Source of the DNA: a candidate division FCPU426 bacterium
Lineage (GTDB): Bacteria; Oederibacteriota; PGYV01; Palsa-1178
Direction of reading: 5' to 3'
Length of the DNA stretch: 64,000 nucleotides
Assembly: GCA_963840035.1 (NCBI GenBank)
Contig: CAWIXE010000001.1
Span: 320,001 to 384,000, forward strand
Below the pieces are notes generated by a model, which was given only the letters and a program-made list of their open reading frames with translations, was not told where the DNA came from and did no database searches. This document shows positions 19,917 to 25,650 of the stretch, in pieces. The translations under genes were made by a program, and so were the position numbers. Each line of letters begins with the position of its first letter. The stretch's first letter is position 1.

Positions 19917-20639
19917 TTAATCAAGATCAAATGGGAATTTTTTAATGGGCACAAATACAATTACAAAAAACGCAAATAACAATCTTAAACTCAATAATAT
20001 TTTTGCATTATTATTGATACAACTTCCAAATATTTCTTCAACATTTGCCAACATAAAAAAAACAAGAAAAACAAAAACCATAATTATTCGAAAAAATATT
20101 TTATAGTTTTTTCTTCTTGAAACTGCTTTATCAAAGTTATCTCTTAGCATTTCAAGCTTTTTCAATTTATTAATTATTCTGTTATTTTCCATTATATGTG
20201 CTTTGCATTTATTTAATACTTCAAAAAAGAAAAAGTTGCTGTTGAATAGACCGCTTATTTGTAAGTTTTCCTTGTCGTTGTTTTTGTATAAAATTTCTAA
20301 ACCATATGAATCAAACATATCCGAAAGCATAATTCCATAAATTTTATTGTATTGAATCTCATTTCGTAAAGTTTTTCCACTAAATAACAACTGTACAATT
20401 GTAAACCTATCCTCTTCCATTTCTATCCATTCCCTTCCAACCCGTCTTAAAAACTTCCCGTCATAAATCATAATTATAATACTTGCCACAGCCATACCGA
20501 ATCCTGACTTATCTCTAACCGCATTATCTATACCAAATATTAATATTTCAAAAACTAATATAAATACAGCAAATAATACCATTAACATTAAATATTTGTA
20601 CCTATATAAATCATACTTGTATTTTTTAATCATACTCAT
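19917..20639 (-). CDS. Putative membrane immunity protein
   Basis: Very AT-rich, ~4 TM segments, abuts stop of RHS C-terminal ORF. Confidence 0.6.
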   Translation of the reverse strand: MSMIKKYKYDLYRYKYLMLMVLFAVFILVFEILIFGIDNAVRDKSGFGMAVASIIIMIYDGKFLRRVGREWIEMEEDRFTIVQLLFSGKTLRNEIQYNKIYGIMLSDMFDSYGLEILYKNNDKENLQISGLFNSNFFFFEVLNKCKAHIMENNRIINKLKKLEMLRDNFDKAVSRRKNYKIFFRIIMVFVFLVFFMLANVEEIFGSCINNNAKILLSLRLLFAFFVIVFVPIKKFPFDLD

Positions 20640-21297
20640 TTACTTTCCTTCTATACATATAGGTTTAATTATAAAATGATTTATTAATGCGATACTAAGC
20701 GGAATTTCTGGTGCAAATAAAGACGTTACAACCATAGCAACTGAAACTGTACATTCATAACTCATTTTATAAAGTGCTTTTTTAGGATCTTTTTCACTTT
20801 CTTGTATATATTTTAAATTTGAATCAAGTGAAATGGCTTCAAATATTCCACCTTCTAATTTAAAAATTCTACTAAGTTTAAGAAAATTCGCTTTTTTAAT
20901 CAAATGTGCGCTTTTTTCAAGTGAGTATGAAATTAATATCGTTCCGAATGAACTTTCCTCAACAAATTCTCGACTATAATTTTCTGTAGCTAATCCTTTA
21001 TCCCCATCTTCGTAATTTTCCTTAACTTTGCTTCCATTTTCTTTACTTTGTTCTTCAAAATCAGCATCTAAATGAGCCTTCATTGCTTTTAGCGCTTCTT
21101 TATAAGCATCACTTCCTGGTTCTAATGTATTTATTCCATATGAGTCTGAATTATATTCCCCAGCAGCAACATTTATATAATAACGCCCATTCTCATCATA
21201 TGCTTCCCCATATTTATCAGTTAATCCTAAAGGATTGTTGTTACAATACTCATAACTATTTATTATATTATTTTCATTCAGCACAGGATCAATTTCT
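20640..21297 (-). pseudogene. Orphan RHS C-terminal (toxin) cassette, truncated at the element end
   Basis: EIDPVLNENNIINSYEYCNNNPLGLTDKYG matches end of the RHS-associated core; cut at 21297 by the IR. Confidence 0.8.
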
Positions 21298-21325
21298 TGT
21301 CCTGCCTGTCAATTATTGTCACTTT

Positions 21326-22375
21326 TTACCCCGCAAATTGGTTGACATTTTGTTCTCCGGATTTGATCAAACACAACCCCATATCTACAACTGATTTTAC
21401 CACGGCCTTCCTCACAACGTCAAGTTTATCCAGTCCCGGTATTTTCTGTTTTTCAATTTCCGCAATCGCATTTTCAGCTTTTTTAATTAGCTCATGCTTT
21501 TCTTCGTTTTTGTATATTTCTCCGTTTTTGAAAACTTCAGCGCTTGTTTTGCCGTCAAATATACGCCGCGGCATTTCGTGATTAATCTCATAAATCGCTC
21601 TTTCAAATTTGGCGTATACTTTTTCGTAATTTAACCCTCCTTTTTCAGTTTTCAGATATTTCTCAAATATCTGATTTTCGCGCTCCAGTTTCCCGTTGAA
21701 AAGCGGATAATGCCCGGGGCTGGGCATCGTGAGAATCTCTTTTTCTTTCAAATAACTTATTAATACTTCGTTCTGAAACTCAGAACCCCTGTCAGTTTTA
21801 ACCACAAGCGGTTTTATTCCCTGCTCGTTCATCACGCGTTCAAGCAGGATTTTCGCCTTTTCACCGGTATTTGAATAACTCATAATCCAACCAAGCACAC
21901 ACCTTGAGTACTCCTCAAATACCAGCTGAACATACACATACCCTTCTTCGCAGCGTATTTTAATCGTATCTAGCGCCCAGCTGACATGCTTTTTTAGCCA
22001 TTCAACTGACTTGTACTCTTTCTTTCCCGCTTTTTGCTTTTTCCTGGGCCCAAAATACTCATAAACTATTTTTGCAACGCTGCTTGGCGATATACCCGCT
22101 TTTATTGCCAAAACATAATTAGTTGATATTTCCGAAAACCTCCGTTTTAATTCCAGCACCCGGAGTATTGTTTCACCAGACAAGGCCCACGGCGCATGTT
22201 TCGGCCCTGTCTTTTGGGGTTCCAGGGTATCTTTCTTTTTCCACGCATAATAATACTCCCTTGGAACCCCGATTGAATCAAAATACGCCTTTATACTTCC
22301 TCCGTTTTGTACGGTTTCTTCGGCACTTCTGAGTATATTTCTTTTAACACTTTCCGCATATTGGCGTTTTTTTTT
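21326..22375 (-). CDS. IS3-like OrfB DDE integrase-core transposase, probably expressed as OrfAB by -1 frameshift
   Basis: WALD, KTDRGSEF, NGKLERE; frame checked open upstream of 22183 to 22384, through the A9 run, adding IGVPREYYYAWKKK. Confidence 0.8.
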   Translation of the reverse strand, partial: KKKRQYAESVKRNILRSAEETVQNGGSIKAYFDSIGVPREYYYAWKKKDTLEPQKTGPKHAPWALSGETILRVLELKRRFSEISTNYVLAIKAGISPSSVAKIVYEYFGPRKKQKAGKKEYKSVEWLKKHVSWALDTIKIRCEEGYVYVQLVFEEYSRCVLGWIMSYSNTGEKAKILLERVMNEQGIKPLVVKTDRGSEFQNEVLISYLKEKEILTMPSPGHYPLFNGKLERENQIFEKYLKTEKGGLNYEKVYAKFERAIYEINHEMPRRIFDGKTSAEVFKNGEIYKNEEKHELIKKAENAIAEIEKQKIPGLDKLDVVRKAVVKSVVDMGLCLIKSGEQNVNQFAG

Positions 22376-22797
22376 GCGCCGTCTTCATCGTTTTTTTCAA
22401 AGAAGCTCGTTGCTTTCCTGGCTATCTGCAGTTCCTGTGTCGCCTTTTTCTTTTCTTCCTCCAGTATCCGGATCTTTTCCTCCAGCTTCCGCTGTTCTTC
22501 CTGCGCCTTTGTCACTGTTTCCCTCAGATCCTCTTCCTTCACGTAGTTCTTCGGCTTCCTGCCTCTCTTCTCCGTCTTCAGGAACGCCCTGGCTATCCCT
22601 TCCAGCGCTATTTTCTTCCACTCCCGGAACGTCTCCCTCGATATATCCATCTCCTCGCAGACCTGTTTCACCTTCTTTTCCTTTGCCATTACTTTCAGTA
22701 CTGCCTGAAACTTCACCTCGTATGGGATTTCCCTGTAGTACTTCGTGGATTTCTGTTCCATCATTTCCTGCTGAATTTTCTCCTGTTCCATTTTCAA
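22291..22797 (-). CDS. IS3-like OrfA (HTH plus coiled coil)
   Basis: VKFQAVLKVM..VKQVCEEMDISRETFREWKK; GRKP; slippery GCA AAA AAA AAC near the 3' end. Confidence 0.8.
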   Translation of the reverse strand: MKMEQEKIQQEMMEQKSTKYYREIPYEVKFQAVLKVMAKEKKVKQVCEEMDISRETFREWKKIALEGIARAFLKTEKRGRKPKNYVKEEDLRETVTKAQEEQRKLEEKIRILEEEKKKATQELQIARKATSFFEKNDEDGAKKNANMRKVLKEIYSEVPKKPYKTEEV

Positions 22798-23971
22798 TTA
22801 CCCCCTTATTTTCTTTATTTTCCTTTTTTTCCTCCACTGCATCTAACCCCTCAACCATAACACTTCCTTCTTTTGCTATTACCCGTATTTCTTTTCCGCC
22901 TATTTTTCCGATTAAATACATAGGCTCTTTTAATTTTCTCGGGTCAACAATTAGCGCGTCTTTTACCATTCCTGCCCCTTTTTCCATAACTTCACGCACC
23001 GACTTTTCAACGCTGAAAAACCTGTCAGCAGGCAGTAACCCATCAATCCCCTGATGCGGCCTTTTGAAGTTATACCATTCCACCCATTTTCCTATCTTTT
23101 CCTGCGCGTCTTCAAAGCTGGATATCGGCTCTTTACTTAGTAATTCCTGGTACATATTCCGCCAGAGCGATTCAACTTTTCCGCAGGTTTGGGGATGATA
23201 CGGCCGGCTTCTCAAATGGCTTATTCCGCTTCTTGTAAGGAATTTTTGAAATGTGCTTTTCCCCCTCCAACTGGCAAACTGCCTGCCGTTATCAGTAAGC
23301 ACTTCTTTTGGCATGCCGTACTTTTCTATCGCGTTTTTTAGCACATCCAGGACCCTGTCGCTGGTTTGGTTCCGAAATACCCCTATACTGACGACAAACC
23401 GCGAATAATCATCCAGACATGCTATTACATATATCCGGTACAGCCCCTGCAGCATAAATGTCATTATATCCATCTGGTACATGTCGCCGGGTTTGCTTCT
23501 TTCAAAACGCTGCGGTTCCTTTTGACTATTTCCATGCCGCAGGCTTTTTTCCTGTACCATTGTTGCTGTCTGAGGGTCGGTTCGGAGGACTTTTTCAATA
23601 CCGTCGCGGCATACTTTTACGAACTTATTGCGCATCAAATAATCCCCGATTTTCTTAACTCCAATTCCGGGATTTTCCAGCTTTAATTTGACTATTTCCG
23701 CTTTTACCGCTTCCGGTACTTCCTGCGCTACTTTGCCGCCGCGGTTATCTTCCAGCCCCTCTTCACCGCCTGTTTTGTACCTTTCTTGCCAGCTTTTAAA
23801 AGTACCGACGCCCATTCCATACCACTTACAGAACATAGTAATAGGCGCACCTATCTGTTCAAATTCTTTTAGCAGTTTTAGTTTTTCTTCTTTTGAGTAG
23901 ATTTTACCGGCGGAGTCGCTTTTTGTGTATTTTCTCTTTCCCTTTTCTTTCTTTTTCTTCATGAACCACAT
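22397..23971 (-). CDS. IS481-like DDE transposase
   Basis: N-terminal HTH, RFERSKPGDMYQMD, LTDNGRQF, HPQTCGKVE, WYNFKRPHQGI; AGGAGG RBS. Confidence 0.9.
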   Translation of the reverse strand: MWFMKKKKEKGKRKYTKSDSAGKIYSKEEKLKLLKEFEQIGAPITMFCKWYGMGVGTFKSWQERYKTGGEEGLEDNRGGKVAQEVPEAVKAEIVKLKLENPGIGVKKIGDYLMRNKFVKVCRDGIEKVLRTDPQTATMVQEKSLRHGNSQKEPQRFERSKPGDMYQMDIMTFMLQGLYRIYVIACLDDYSRFVVSIGVFRNQTSDRVLDVLKNAIEKYGMPKEVLTDNGRQFASWRGKSTFQKFLTRSGISHLRSRPYHPQTCGKVESLWRNMYQELLSKEPISSFEDAQEKIGKWVEWYNFKRPHQGIDGLLPADRFFSVEKSVREVMEKGAGMVKDALIVDPRKLKEPMYLIGKIGGKEIRVIAKEGSVMVEGLDAVEEKKENKENKGVIENGTGENSAGNDGTEIHEVLQGNPIRGEVSGSTESNGKGKEGETGLRGDGYIEGDVPGVEENSAGRDSQGVPEDGEERQEAEELREGRGSEGNSDKGAGRTAEAGGKDPDTGGRKEKGDTGTADSQESNELL

Positions 23972-24062
23972 ATATTTTACCTCCTCTTTCGTTGAATTTC
24001 CAGAGGTAAAATGTCAACCTATTTCAATGGGTTAGCAGTTATGATAATTGACGGCTAGGATA

Positions 24063-24175
24063 ACCCTTGTCTTCCCGCTTCCGGCGCCGGCAAGAATCAG
24101 TATGGGCCCGTCCTTGTGCTTTACAGCCTCAAGCTGTTCTTTATTCATAAGTTCATTAATATTGCTGTTTGTCAA
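24063..24175 (-). pseudogene. pcrA: 5' stub of UvrD/PcrA helicase
   Basis: [29 protein letters not shown] (Q motif plus Walker A) ending at the element IR; own TTGACA/TATAAT promoter at 24224-24251. Confidence 0.8.
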
Positions 24176-24357
24176 TGCTTTGGCTCCATGTTTTTTTCCT
24201 GAGTGGTCATACAATTCCTAAAGATTATATAATGGAAAGGAGTTTTGTCAAGCAAGGATTAAAAACATTTCTAATCTTATTTATATATATAATTATATTT
24301 CTCGTAATTTATTTGGTTGCGTTTCTTTGAAACTGAGTATTAACGCACGAGTTAGAT

Positions 24358-24807
24358 TTAAGTATTTGTGCCCTTCCGTTTCCTTAAAACTGTTGACATA
24401 CAATCTATTAACAACACACTTAGCGACATACCAAATATGCATGTTATTATTCCGATTTTAAATGCCATCTGAAAAAACTCCCTATACTTGATAAATTTTT
24501 TTGATTCCTCTATTAGGTCGTTGTTAAAAATTAAAAACAAAAAAAACACCGCGGATGTAATTATTATGCTTATAATAATTCTTGCATATCGCCGTATTTT
24601 ATTTTTATCCCCCAAAACAGAGTAAGCATCCTCAACAAAAAACGGAATTAATATAACAAACATAAGGTATGTGGAAATTAAATAAGAAATATATTTTTTA
24701 AATCCAACTTTTTCCAATAACAATGATAATACAACACAGCTTATTAACACACAACTATATACAATAAATTTTAATATTGCCTTTTCGTTTTTTTTAGGTT
24801 TGTTCAA
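24358..24807 (-). CDS. Putative membrane immunity protein
   Basis: AT-rich 4-TM ORF right after the RHS C-terminal ORF. Confidence 0.6.
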   Translation of the reverse strand: MNKPKKNEKAILKFIVYSCVLISCVVLSLLLEKVGFKKYISYLISTYLMFVILIPFFVEDAYSVLGDKNKIRRYARIIISIIITSAVFFLFLIFNNDLIEESKKFIKYREFFQMAFKIGIITCIFGMSLSVLLIDCMSTVLRKRKGTNT

Positions 24808-24813
24808 CTCAAA

Positions 24814-25650
24814 TCATCTCCAGCCTTCAATAATATCCGTTAAAGCTAAATAACCACCTTGTTCTATTAAAATAAGTCCTGTCCCCTTTGCAAGGAATCC
24901 TGGCAATCCCGGTATATTGGTTTTAAGCAATAAACTTCCAGCTCCGATCAGGTATGTTTTAAGCTTTCCGTCACTCATGTCAAATGGATCAAATTCTTGT
25001 TTAACTAATGGTTGTGTCATTAAAACCGCATCAAATATCAAACAAGAATTATCGTAAAAGTCCGAAGAGAAAAAGTCATTGTCTGTTGTTTCTAAGTAAT
25101 TGTTGTCACTAATTACTTTATCATCACCATTTATATACTCAATCTCAGCTTCGTTGGGACAAGAAGTATTATAAGGATTTCCATAATTATCATTATTCGG
25201 GTCATCATACATATTCGTTGATTTTGGATTTCTCCAATCGTTTTCTTCATCAACTTCATAATCAACATCATTATTTGAAGTAGCTTCCTCCTCAGATCTC
25301 ATTTCCTCACAATCTGCCTCAATATGAGTCCATCCATCAGAATCAACATAATCCTCTCCATACCTATCTATTAGATTTGTGGGATTGTTTGCGCAATACT
25401 CATACGTATTAATTATGTTATTTCCTTCCAACACAGGATCGTTTTCAATAAATCTCCCCGTATTTGCATCATACCACCTTGCGGCAAAGTAGTAAAGCCC
25501 GGTGTCGGGGTCGTACATGTTTGAGGACAGGCCGAATTTGCTTATGCCGTTTCCTGTCCTTTTCCCGAACTCATCATCTGTTTCCCTCTCCAGCACCTGT
25601 CCTTTCTCATCACAGACCATATATACGCTTCCTATGCGGTCGGGGTATTG
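24814..25650 (-). pseudogene. Orphan RHS-associated core plus C-terminal toxin domain
   Basis: QYPDRIGSVYMVCDEKG..DEFG..YDPDTGLYYFAARWYDANTGRFIENDPV..YEYCANNPTNLIDRYG; no upstream YD-repeat body. Confidence 0.85.

Follow-up and report, generated by a model that had tools for sequence, protein, structure and literature searches.

An insertion sequence family with two different DDE transposases in one pair of inverted repeats and no target duplication above chance

Organization of the element

A 64,000-nucleotide stretch of DNA from a candidate division FCPU426 bacterium (GenBank assembly GCA_963840035.1, contig CAWIXE010000001.1, forward-strand positions 320,001 to 384,000; hereafter the window) contains an insertion sequence (IS) in which two different transposases, each with an aspartate-aspartate-glutamate (DDE) triad, lie between a single pair of terminal inverted repeats (IRs). 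The 98%-complete source genome carries three copies with zero differences over 2,765 bp: C1:341298-344062 (the window copy, copy A), C1:589168-591932, and C2:829726-832490 (copy C). The flanks differ at each of the three identical copies, and thus both ends are fixed, at window positions 21298 and 24062. The element is intact and was copied recently. Its features, in window coordinates, are as follows.

21298..24062, minus strand: whole element, 2,765 bp, three identical genomic copies
24008..24062, minus strand: left inverted repeat (IRL), ~55 bp, begins TAT; outer box plus inner GGTTGACA box
22397..23971, minus strand: D1, IS481-like HTH-HTH-DDE transposase (HTH, helix-turn-helix), 524 aa; Pfam rve (E 2.5e-20) and HTH_28/HTH_32
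23468-70, 23291-93 and 23171-73, minus strand: D1 catalytic codons, 39 residues from second D to E
22291..22791, minus strand: OrfA, HTH protein ending in a charged helical tail; +1 frame relative to the D1 tail; ATG at 22791 after GGGGG, alternative start TTG at 22797
22366..22375, minus strand: A9C slippery run (A AAA AAC in the OrfA frame), with a predicted OrfA-D2 fusion (OrfAB, about 487 aa)
21326..22384, minus strand: D2 open frame, second DDE (integrase-fold) transposase; Pfam rve (E 1.1e-10)
21968-70, 21791-93 and 21683-85, minus strand: D2 catalytic codons, 35 residues from second D to E
21298..21351, plus strand: right inverted repeat (IRR), ~54 bp, begins TGT; D2 stop codon inside

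An earlier note on this DNA had described ~55-bp terminal repeats with common motifs at equal offsets and no internal repeat, enclosing two different DDE genes with intact triads, and each of these features is seen in the window. The left end reads TATCC and the right end TGTCC, with GTCAATTAT and GGTTGACATTTT in both at matching offsets; with a family IR profile the ends score 35 and 42, versus a best internal score of -0.6, and no internal IR is present in the window element. Pfam rve is found in both D1 and D2, and the catalytic codons of both were located. No domains other than HTH and rve-type DDE were detected in the element proteins with Pfam and NCBIfam. The element is best explained as an autonomous insertion sequence with one TGT...ACA end pair and two conserved DDE enzymes.

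Against the NCBIfam IS481 model (NF033577), D1 scores 218.7 bits, with a cut-off of 224. Its last ~135 codons overlap OrfA in another frame and form a low-complexity tail. Over 63 related elements, the D1 frame across OrfA holds 63 stop codons versus 174 expected, and because stop codons are scarce there, the overprinted tail is probably selected. The predicted structure of D1 is weaker (predicted local distance difference test, pLDDT, 77) than that of D2, which is confident (pLDDT 89; predicted template-modelling score 0.82) and matches retroviral integrases (best E 1.7e-9). D2 lies in the -1 frame relative to OrfA, with predicted entry at the A9C run (A9 at 22367-22375). The earlier note had called this pair an IS3-like OrfA/OrfB; the layout bears this out (HTH OrfA, frameshift, DDE) but the sequence does not, as D2 is no closer to IS3 than to IS481 (60.6 and 78 bits, respectively, with the NCBIfam models).

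Distribution and conservation of the two-DDE family

Related elements were sought in genomes with a D1 alignment (best 80 of 250 loci) and in metagenomes with a D2 alignment (best 80 of 114 loci). Where there was room for the partner gene, set at no less than 2.6 kb for D1 loci, D2 was found downstream of D1 in 58 of 60 genome loci (63 of all 80; 15 others end too early) and D1 upstream of D2 in 47 of 47 metagenome loci (55 of all 80; 25 are too short), the D2 profile having been built from the metagenome loci. A separate single-phylum sample, for which 20 loci were fetched, had D2 in 18. Judged by record titles, no fewer than 13 phyla are represented among the 63 genome pairs, most often Elusimicrobiota (17), followed by Verrucomicrobiota (13) and Nitrospirota (8). 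Viral contigs yielded one family member, and 72,556 plasmid records yielded none, the best matches there being single IS481 genes at 30-31%. Element length across the family is 2.6-4.3 kb.

In 76 elements a pair of ~55-bp IRs is present, built from an outer box and an inner GGTTGACAC box. The right end is TGT in 75/76, and the left end is TGT in 57, TAT in 13, and TGC in 6; TGT stands at both ends in 56/76. The earlier note had suggested that the two enzymes act asymmetrically on TGT and TAT ends. This explanation was rejected: a TAT left end is found in only 13/76 elements and is therefore not family-wide, and IS2, which has one transposase, also has a TA-3' left end and uses its right end as donor (PMC3299598), so the asymmetry needs no second enzyme.

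Conservation was assessed on 75 non-redundant D1/D2 pairs, drawn from 97 near-complete of 114. A DDE triad is found in 75/75 D1 and 74/75 D2 proteins, at a mean core identity of 58% and 34%, respectively. The spacing from the second D to E is 39 residues in 70/75 D1 proteins and 37 in 5/75, and 35 in 74/75 D2 proteins; W235 and R236 of D1 are invariant. Median ratios of nonsynonymous to synonymous substitution are 0.11 for D1 and 0.24 for D2 over 14 non-overlapping close pairs, the set to which the measure is limited (0.52 and 0.70 when saturated pairs are included), and indicate that both genes are under purifying selection. OrfA is separate in 73/75 elements, with a run of at least six A in the overlap in 72/73. 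Among the 73, the shift from OrfA to D2 is -1 in 36 elements and +1 in the other 37, and this near-even division suggests polymerase slippage at the A-run.

The D1 and D2 trees have 34/72 splits in common versus a mean of 0.2 with shuffled labels (Mantel r 0.83), and are thus congruent, a check that the earlier note had proposed along with co-occurrence of the two genes. D2 has evolved about 2.2 times faster than D1. In a tree with 16 single-DDE outgroups, D1 forms one clade (support 88), as does D2 (Shimodaira-Hasegawa-like approximate likelihood ratio test 96). D2 does not join true IS3 OrfBs, and the nearest outgroups of D1 are IS481-type, although branches are long and the deep order is unsure.

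These comparisons bear on whether one IS has inserted into another, or whether an IS481 and an IS3 element came together by chance. The modules do resemble two known family layouts, and derivatives with D1 alone exist. Nevertheless, nesting is very improbable and was rejected: the IR profile finds no internal IR across 54 elements (best internal score 8.3 or less), D1 and D2 diverged together, D2 never occurs alone in the 47 loci with room and lies in a clade of its own outside the IS3 OrfB group, the D1-only forms fall inside the family, and OrfA is overprinted on the D1 tail. The earlier note's reading of a dedicated two-DDE element is therefore supported by two-way co-occurrence, one IR pair in 76 elements, congruent trees, and conserved triads. 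As for either transposase occurring by itself, D2 was alone in 0/47 loci and D1 alone only as derived forms.

Several members have features of their own. A 4,286-bp subtype (L315/L316, L326, L328) has a D2 open frame of 600-840 codons with an OrfA-like stretch, a longer or fused second module. L227 (G027:C1 1404000-1420000) comprises two family copies, 92% identical, 4 kb apart in the same orientation, in which the 5' part of D1 differs most. For the close relatives L090, L094, and L097 the D1 and D2 trees are discordant, which suggests that related elements have exchanged modules. L224 (G067:C14 217482-217616) and L229/L230 are short pieces of element ends only, possibly miniature derivatives or remnants, and in L123 the IRL tip is duplicated and the right end uncertain.

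Insertion sites

No target duplication of at least 4 bp was found at any of 77 insertion sites, L232 being left out of the count as its right end was not placed. At 63 unique sites the flanks match over 0 bp in 45, 1 bp in 14, and 2 bp in 4, versus 45.7, 11.3, and 4.6 for shuffled flank pairs (and 1.1 at 3 bp); at 14 further sites they match over 0, 1, 2, and 3 bp in 6, 5, 1, and 2. Target duplication is no more frequent than chance in the two-DDE family. As a positive control, the same check was applied to an ordinary IS481-like element lying within a two-DDE copy (L228), where it recovered a duplication of 5 bp. IS30-type and IS3/IS481-type copies in the source genome, also used as controls, gave no clean duplication.

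Two ways in which duplications could have been hidden were considered and set aside. Misplaced ends do not account for the result, as a slack of 3 nt per end gave matches of at least 4 bp at 4/63 sites versus about 9.6 for shuffled pairs. Recombination between copies was rejected because six copies in one whole chromosome show no cross-matching duplication longer than 3 bp. No 12-mer is common to both 150-nt flanks in the 63 sites. Overall, it is almost certain that these elements form a dedicated two-DDE family without a fixed target duplication.

The ~2.96-kb element inserted in L228 (G061:C2 868000-880000) carries a partner gene that probably encodes an ATPase. Its distal part, 1,513 bp, recurs at 82% identity directly beside L130 at the right end; the right flank of L130 consists of another complete IS.

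At fourteen junctions a gene is interrupted and its remainder is missing from the other flank: copies A, B, and C, L143, L152, L160, L127, L027, L035, L125, L145, L134, L141, and L139. At copy C both flanks lie in one giant gene, and a homologue aligns to residue 1213 on one side and from residue 4197 on the other, leaving about 9 kb absent. Similarly, about 2,600-2,800 codons (8 kb) of a giant gene are absent between the flanks of L152, and about 3.6-4.2 kb of an RHS gene between those of L143. For L160, L127, and L027 the lack of continuation was established by homologue comparison; for L035, L125, L145, L134, L141, and L139 a domain is cut and no matching frame is present on the opposite side. 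L055, L021, L146, and L135 are probable further junctions without gene continuation. Among the junctions examined, none was shown to be continuous across the element. Neither the lack of duplication nor the loss of flanking sequence was mentioned in the earlier note. At copy A, the start of pcrA stands on one side and an RHS remnant on the other.

24063..24260, minus strand: IRL flank, pcrA/uvrD 5' fragment, cut past the Walker A codons; 89% identity to the intact pcrA elsewhere
20640..21297, minus strand: IRR flank, RHS core remnant and tip, 5' side cut; no relation to the IRL flank

Proposed mode of insertion

The best reading of these observations is that the element inserts by joining its ends to separate target sites kilobases apart, replacing the DNA between them, with both enzymes taking part; to this a probability of about 0.5 is given. 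The wider statement, that this would be the first transposon run jointly by two different DDE enzymes and that its normal insertion would be a replacement in which kilobases are removed in the same event, is put forward tentatively. By analogy with IS3-family biology (PMC3299598, PMC11708052), copy-out of the element would yield a circle, the right end serving as donor, in keeping with the nearly invariant TGT of IRR and the tolerance of TAT or TGC at IRL. OrfA together with slippage at the A-run would supply small amounts of D2 in its OrfAB form. D1 would be the core enzyme, able to engage both ends, and D2 would act with it in the same event; the use of two different active sites would free the two strand transfers from a fixed stagger, and the segment between the two joined target sites would afterwards be lost through host repair.

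Several observations weigh against this proposal. L087 (1-1465) has the order IRL-D1-IRR in about 1.46 kb with no OrfA and no D2, no D2 was found in its incomplete genome, and 11 short D1-like proteins, all with the triad intact, group with it within the family (P0061, P0063-P0067, P0069, P0070, P0072-P0074). Such elements may move with D1 alone or borrow D2. D1 also stands without D2 in L104, L119, and L322, of which L104 and L119 look like remnants. The D1 and D2 trees have five and eight well-supported conflicting splits, respectively, all among close relatives. A 3-bp match is present at 2/77 sites, with about 1.7 expected at a chance of 2.3% per site. Seven junctions gave no call either way (L111, L123, L063, L161, L092, L052, L162), the empty sites used were other species or homologous genes rather than the parent strain, and deletion size is measurable in giant genes only. 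Empty-site searches gave no result for L111, L123, and L063, and none was found for L132, L134, and L151 in three related genomes. Finally, L035 and L040 have a right flank in common and different left flanks, the signature of post-insertion deletion, and thus deletions can also follow insertion.

The D1-only elements are best read as derived forms nested inside the family. Several of the L087-type proteins lie on element-sized contigs of 1,458-1,506 bp, and one falls in a 90% cluster with a full-length form. Further D1-only loci were absent from 401 phylum genomes, 56 class genomes, and viral contigs. The earlier note had suggested a heteromeric transposase. Since this derived lineage exists, an obligate D1-D2 heteromer is unproven, and L087-type elements offer a natural test of what D2 contributes.

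The D1-only lineage, with both its IRs, and the flank shared by L035 and L040 also fit a two-step course, in which D1 alone would make an ordinary IS481-type insertion and an accessory D2, as OrfAB, would soon drive adjacent one-end deletions that erase the duplication in almost all copies that survive. In the IS3 family, adjacent deletions become more frequent with fused OrfAB, and PMC11708052 counts 14 of 68 IS150 events in the Lenski experiment as adjacent deletions without duplication. However, the other 54/68 events there were simple insertions with duplication, whereas here duplications of at least 4 bp are found at none of the sites. Young sets of identical or near-identical copies (3, 6, and 4 per genome) should, on this course, include some undeleted copies, yet no continuous junction was seen. 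The two-step course is the main rival, though somewhat unlikely.

Alternatively, D1 itself could be responsible for the outcome, its 39-residue spacing with the invariant W-R insert altering target capture and D2 serving in copy-out or, like TnsA, in second-strand cutting. The different spacing in D2, the invariance of W235 and R236, and the faster evolution of D2 are in keeping with this idea. It predicts, though, that D1-only elements are immobile by themselves, and yet these have diversified, unless they are served in trans; this explanation is improbable.

It is less probable still that the element is captured at existing breaks during host deletions, without cutting of the target. There is precedent in a proposal for rare IS481 and IS5 events (PMC11708052), and genes prone to rearrangement (RHS, restriction, and other IS genes) make up many of the flanks. 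In that precedent, however, capture is a rare side path and not the rule, and both catalytic triads here are under selection. Moreover, the bases beside the two ends are biased alike (A at -1 in 4/63, T at +1 in 5/63), as expected of sites chosen by an enzyme.

Surroundings and relatives in the source genome

The pcrA/uvrD fragment beside copy A (24063-24260) is a diverged second copy of the promoter and first codons of that gene, and its TTGACA and TATAAT boxes face D1; this promoter-like site could drive expression of copy A. RHS tip and immunity-like cassettes surround the fragment. ORFs with an RHS core remnant and tip lie at 19917-21297 and 24358-25620, each followed by a small membrane-protein gene, an arrangement typical of an orphan toxin-immunity cassette array. 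Adjoining copy C, at G000:C2 about 828950-829040, is a ~90-bp palindromic repeat with more than 100 matches genome-wide.

The source genome also contains a fourth member of the family, diverged and with TGT at its left end (L001, G000:C2 about 1596900-1600050). It keeps both the gene order and the A9C run of the window element, at identities of 66%, 29%, and 34%. Its D2 has a long C-terminal extension and its right IR was not found; the small genes beyond may be passengers or a sign of decay. L086 resembles it. Elsewhere (L004, G000:C1 634938-639062), two OrfA/OrfB elements, 94% identical and with TGTTG ends, lie in tandem around an RHS tip cassette. They have no clear duplication, and their OrfB scores higher with IS481 than with IS3.

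Relation to known systems and significance

Elements of the IS481 family have a single transposase ORF, whereas the two-DDE element has three ORFs and two DDE domains. The likeness lies in the TGT...ACA ends and in D1, a single-ORF HTH-rve protein that scores 186-220 bits in seven members with the IS481 model; the same model gives D2 47-86 bits across members. The two-DDE family differs in its second DDE enzyme and OrfA, its length, its ~55-bp two-box IRs, and the D-to-E distance of 39 in D1. It also differs in its lack of duplications, as IS481 elements make duplications of 2-15 bp, mostly 6 bp (PMC10045372).

With IS3 elements (IS2, IS150, IS911) the family has in common an HTH OrfA frameshift-fused to a DD(35)E OrfB, with an overlap and a -1 slippery site in the window (family-wide, shifts in both directions), and two-part IRs. 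IS3 elements have one DDE enzyme per IR pair and a duplication of 3-4 bp, against a frequency of 3-bp matches near that expected by chance here. D2 reaches 41-75 bits where it matches the IS3 model NF033516 (cut-off 160; OrfB frame only), which six true IS3 OrfB frames, run as a control, pass at 207-279 bits, and it forms its own clade. Further differences are the extra upstream DDE gene and deletion that is apparently the rule, not a minority outcome. Tolerance of TA at the left end, as in IS2 (PMC3299598), and the ability to cause adjacent deletions (PMC11708052) are further likenesses.

Tn7-like elements (TnsA + TnsB) similarly keep two nucleases together on one element. In Tn7, TnsA is a restriction-type nuclease and not a DDE enzyme, the ATPase TnsC is needed, and the duplication is 5 bp. 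In contrast, both enzymes of the two-DDE family are integrase-fold, and Pfam and NCBIfam detect neither a TnsA-type nuclease nor an ATPase. IS21 and IS1202 (NF033546, NF033594) have TG...CA ends and an rve-type enzyme; IS21 has two ORFs, the partner being an ATPase, and IS1202 has one enzyme. The window D1 scores 52.5 and 51.6 bits with these models, far under their cut-offs, and IS1202 differs also in making duplications of 5-6, 15-17, or 24-29 bp (PMC10045372).

Overall, the two-DDE family falls outside the IS481, IS3, and Tn7-like groups on their defining features, and it works like an IS3/IS481-type element. No description of this layout was found in the open-licence literature (PMC and bioRxiv), and the wording 'two transposase' or 'two DDE' is absent from the available part of PMC13343696. 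In annotation the family goes unnoticed, its two enzymes being labelled as unrelated transposases.

According to the usual teaching, DDE transposases are homomers in which two active sites cut at a fixed stagger, hence the fixed duplication. The present family keeps two intact DDE enzymes across many phyla, with duplication not above chance. The family may represent a natural split of functions, asymmetric copy-out and symmetric insertion, that usually reside in one protein of copy-out/paste-in elements. If deletion is part of insertion, these elements would be a mutagen removing kilobases per jump in bacteria of sediment, soil, and groundwater, and a possible one-step replacement tool. If replacement by two DDE enzymes is confirmed, it would be a new class of DDE transposition outcome and a natural insert-and-delete genome-editing machine.

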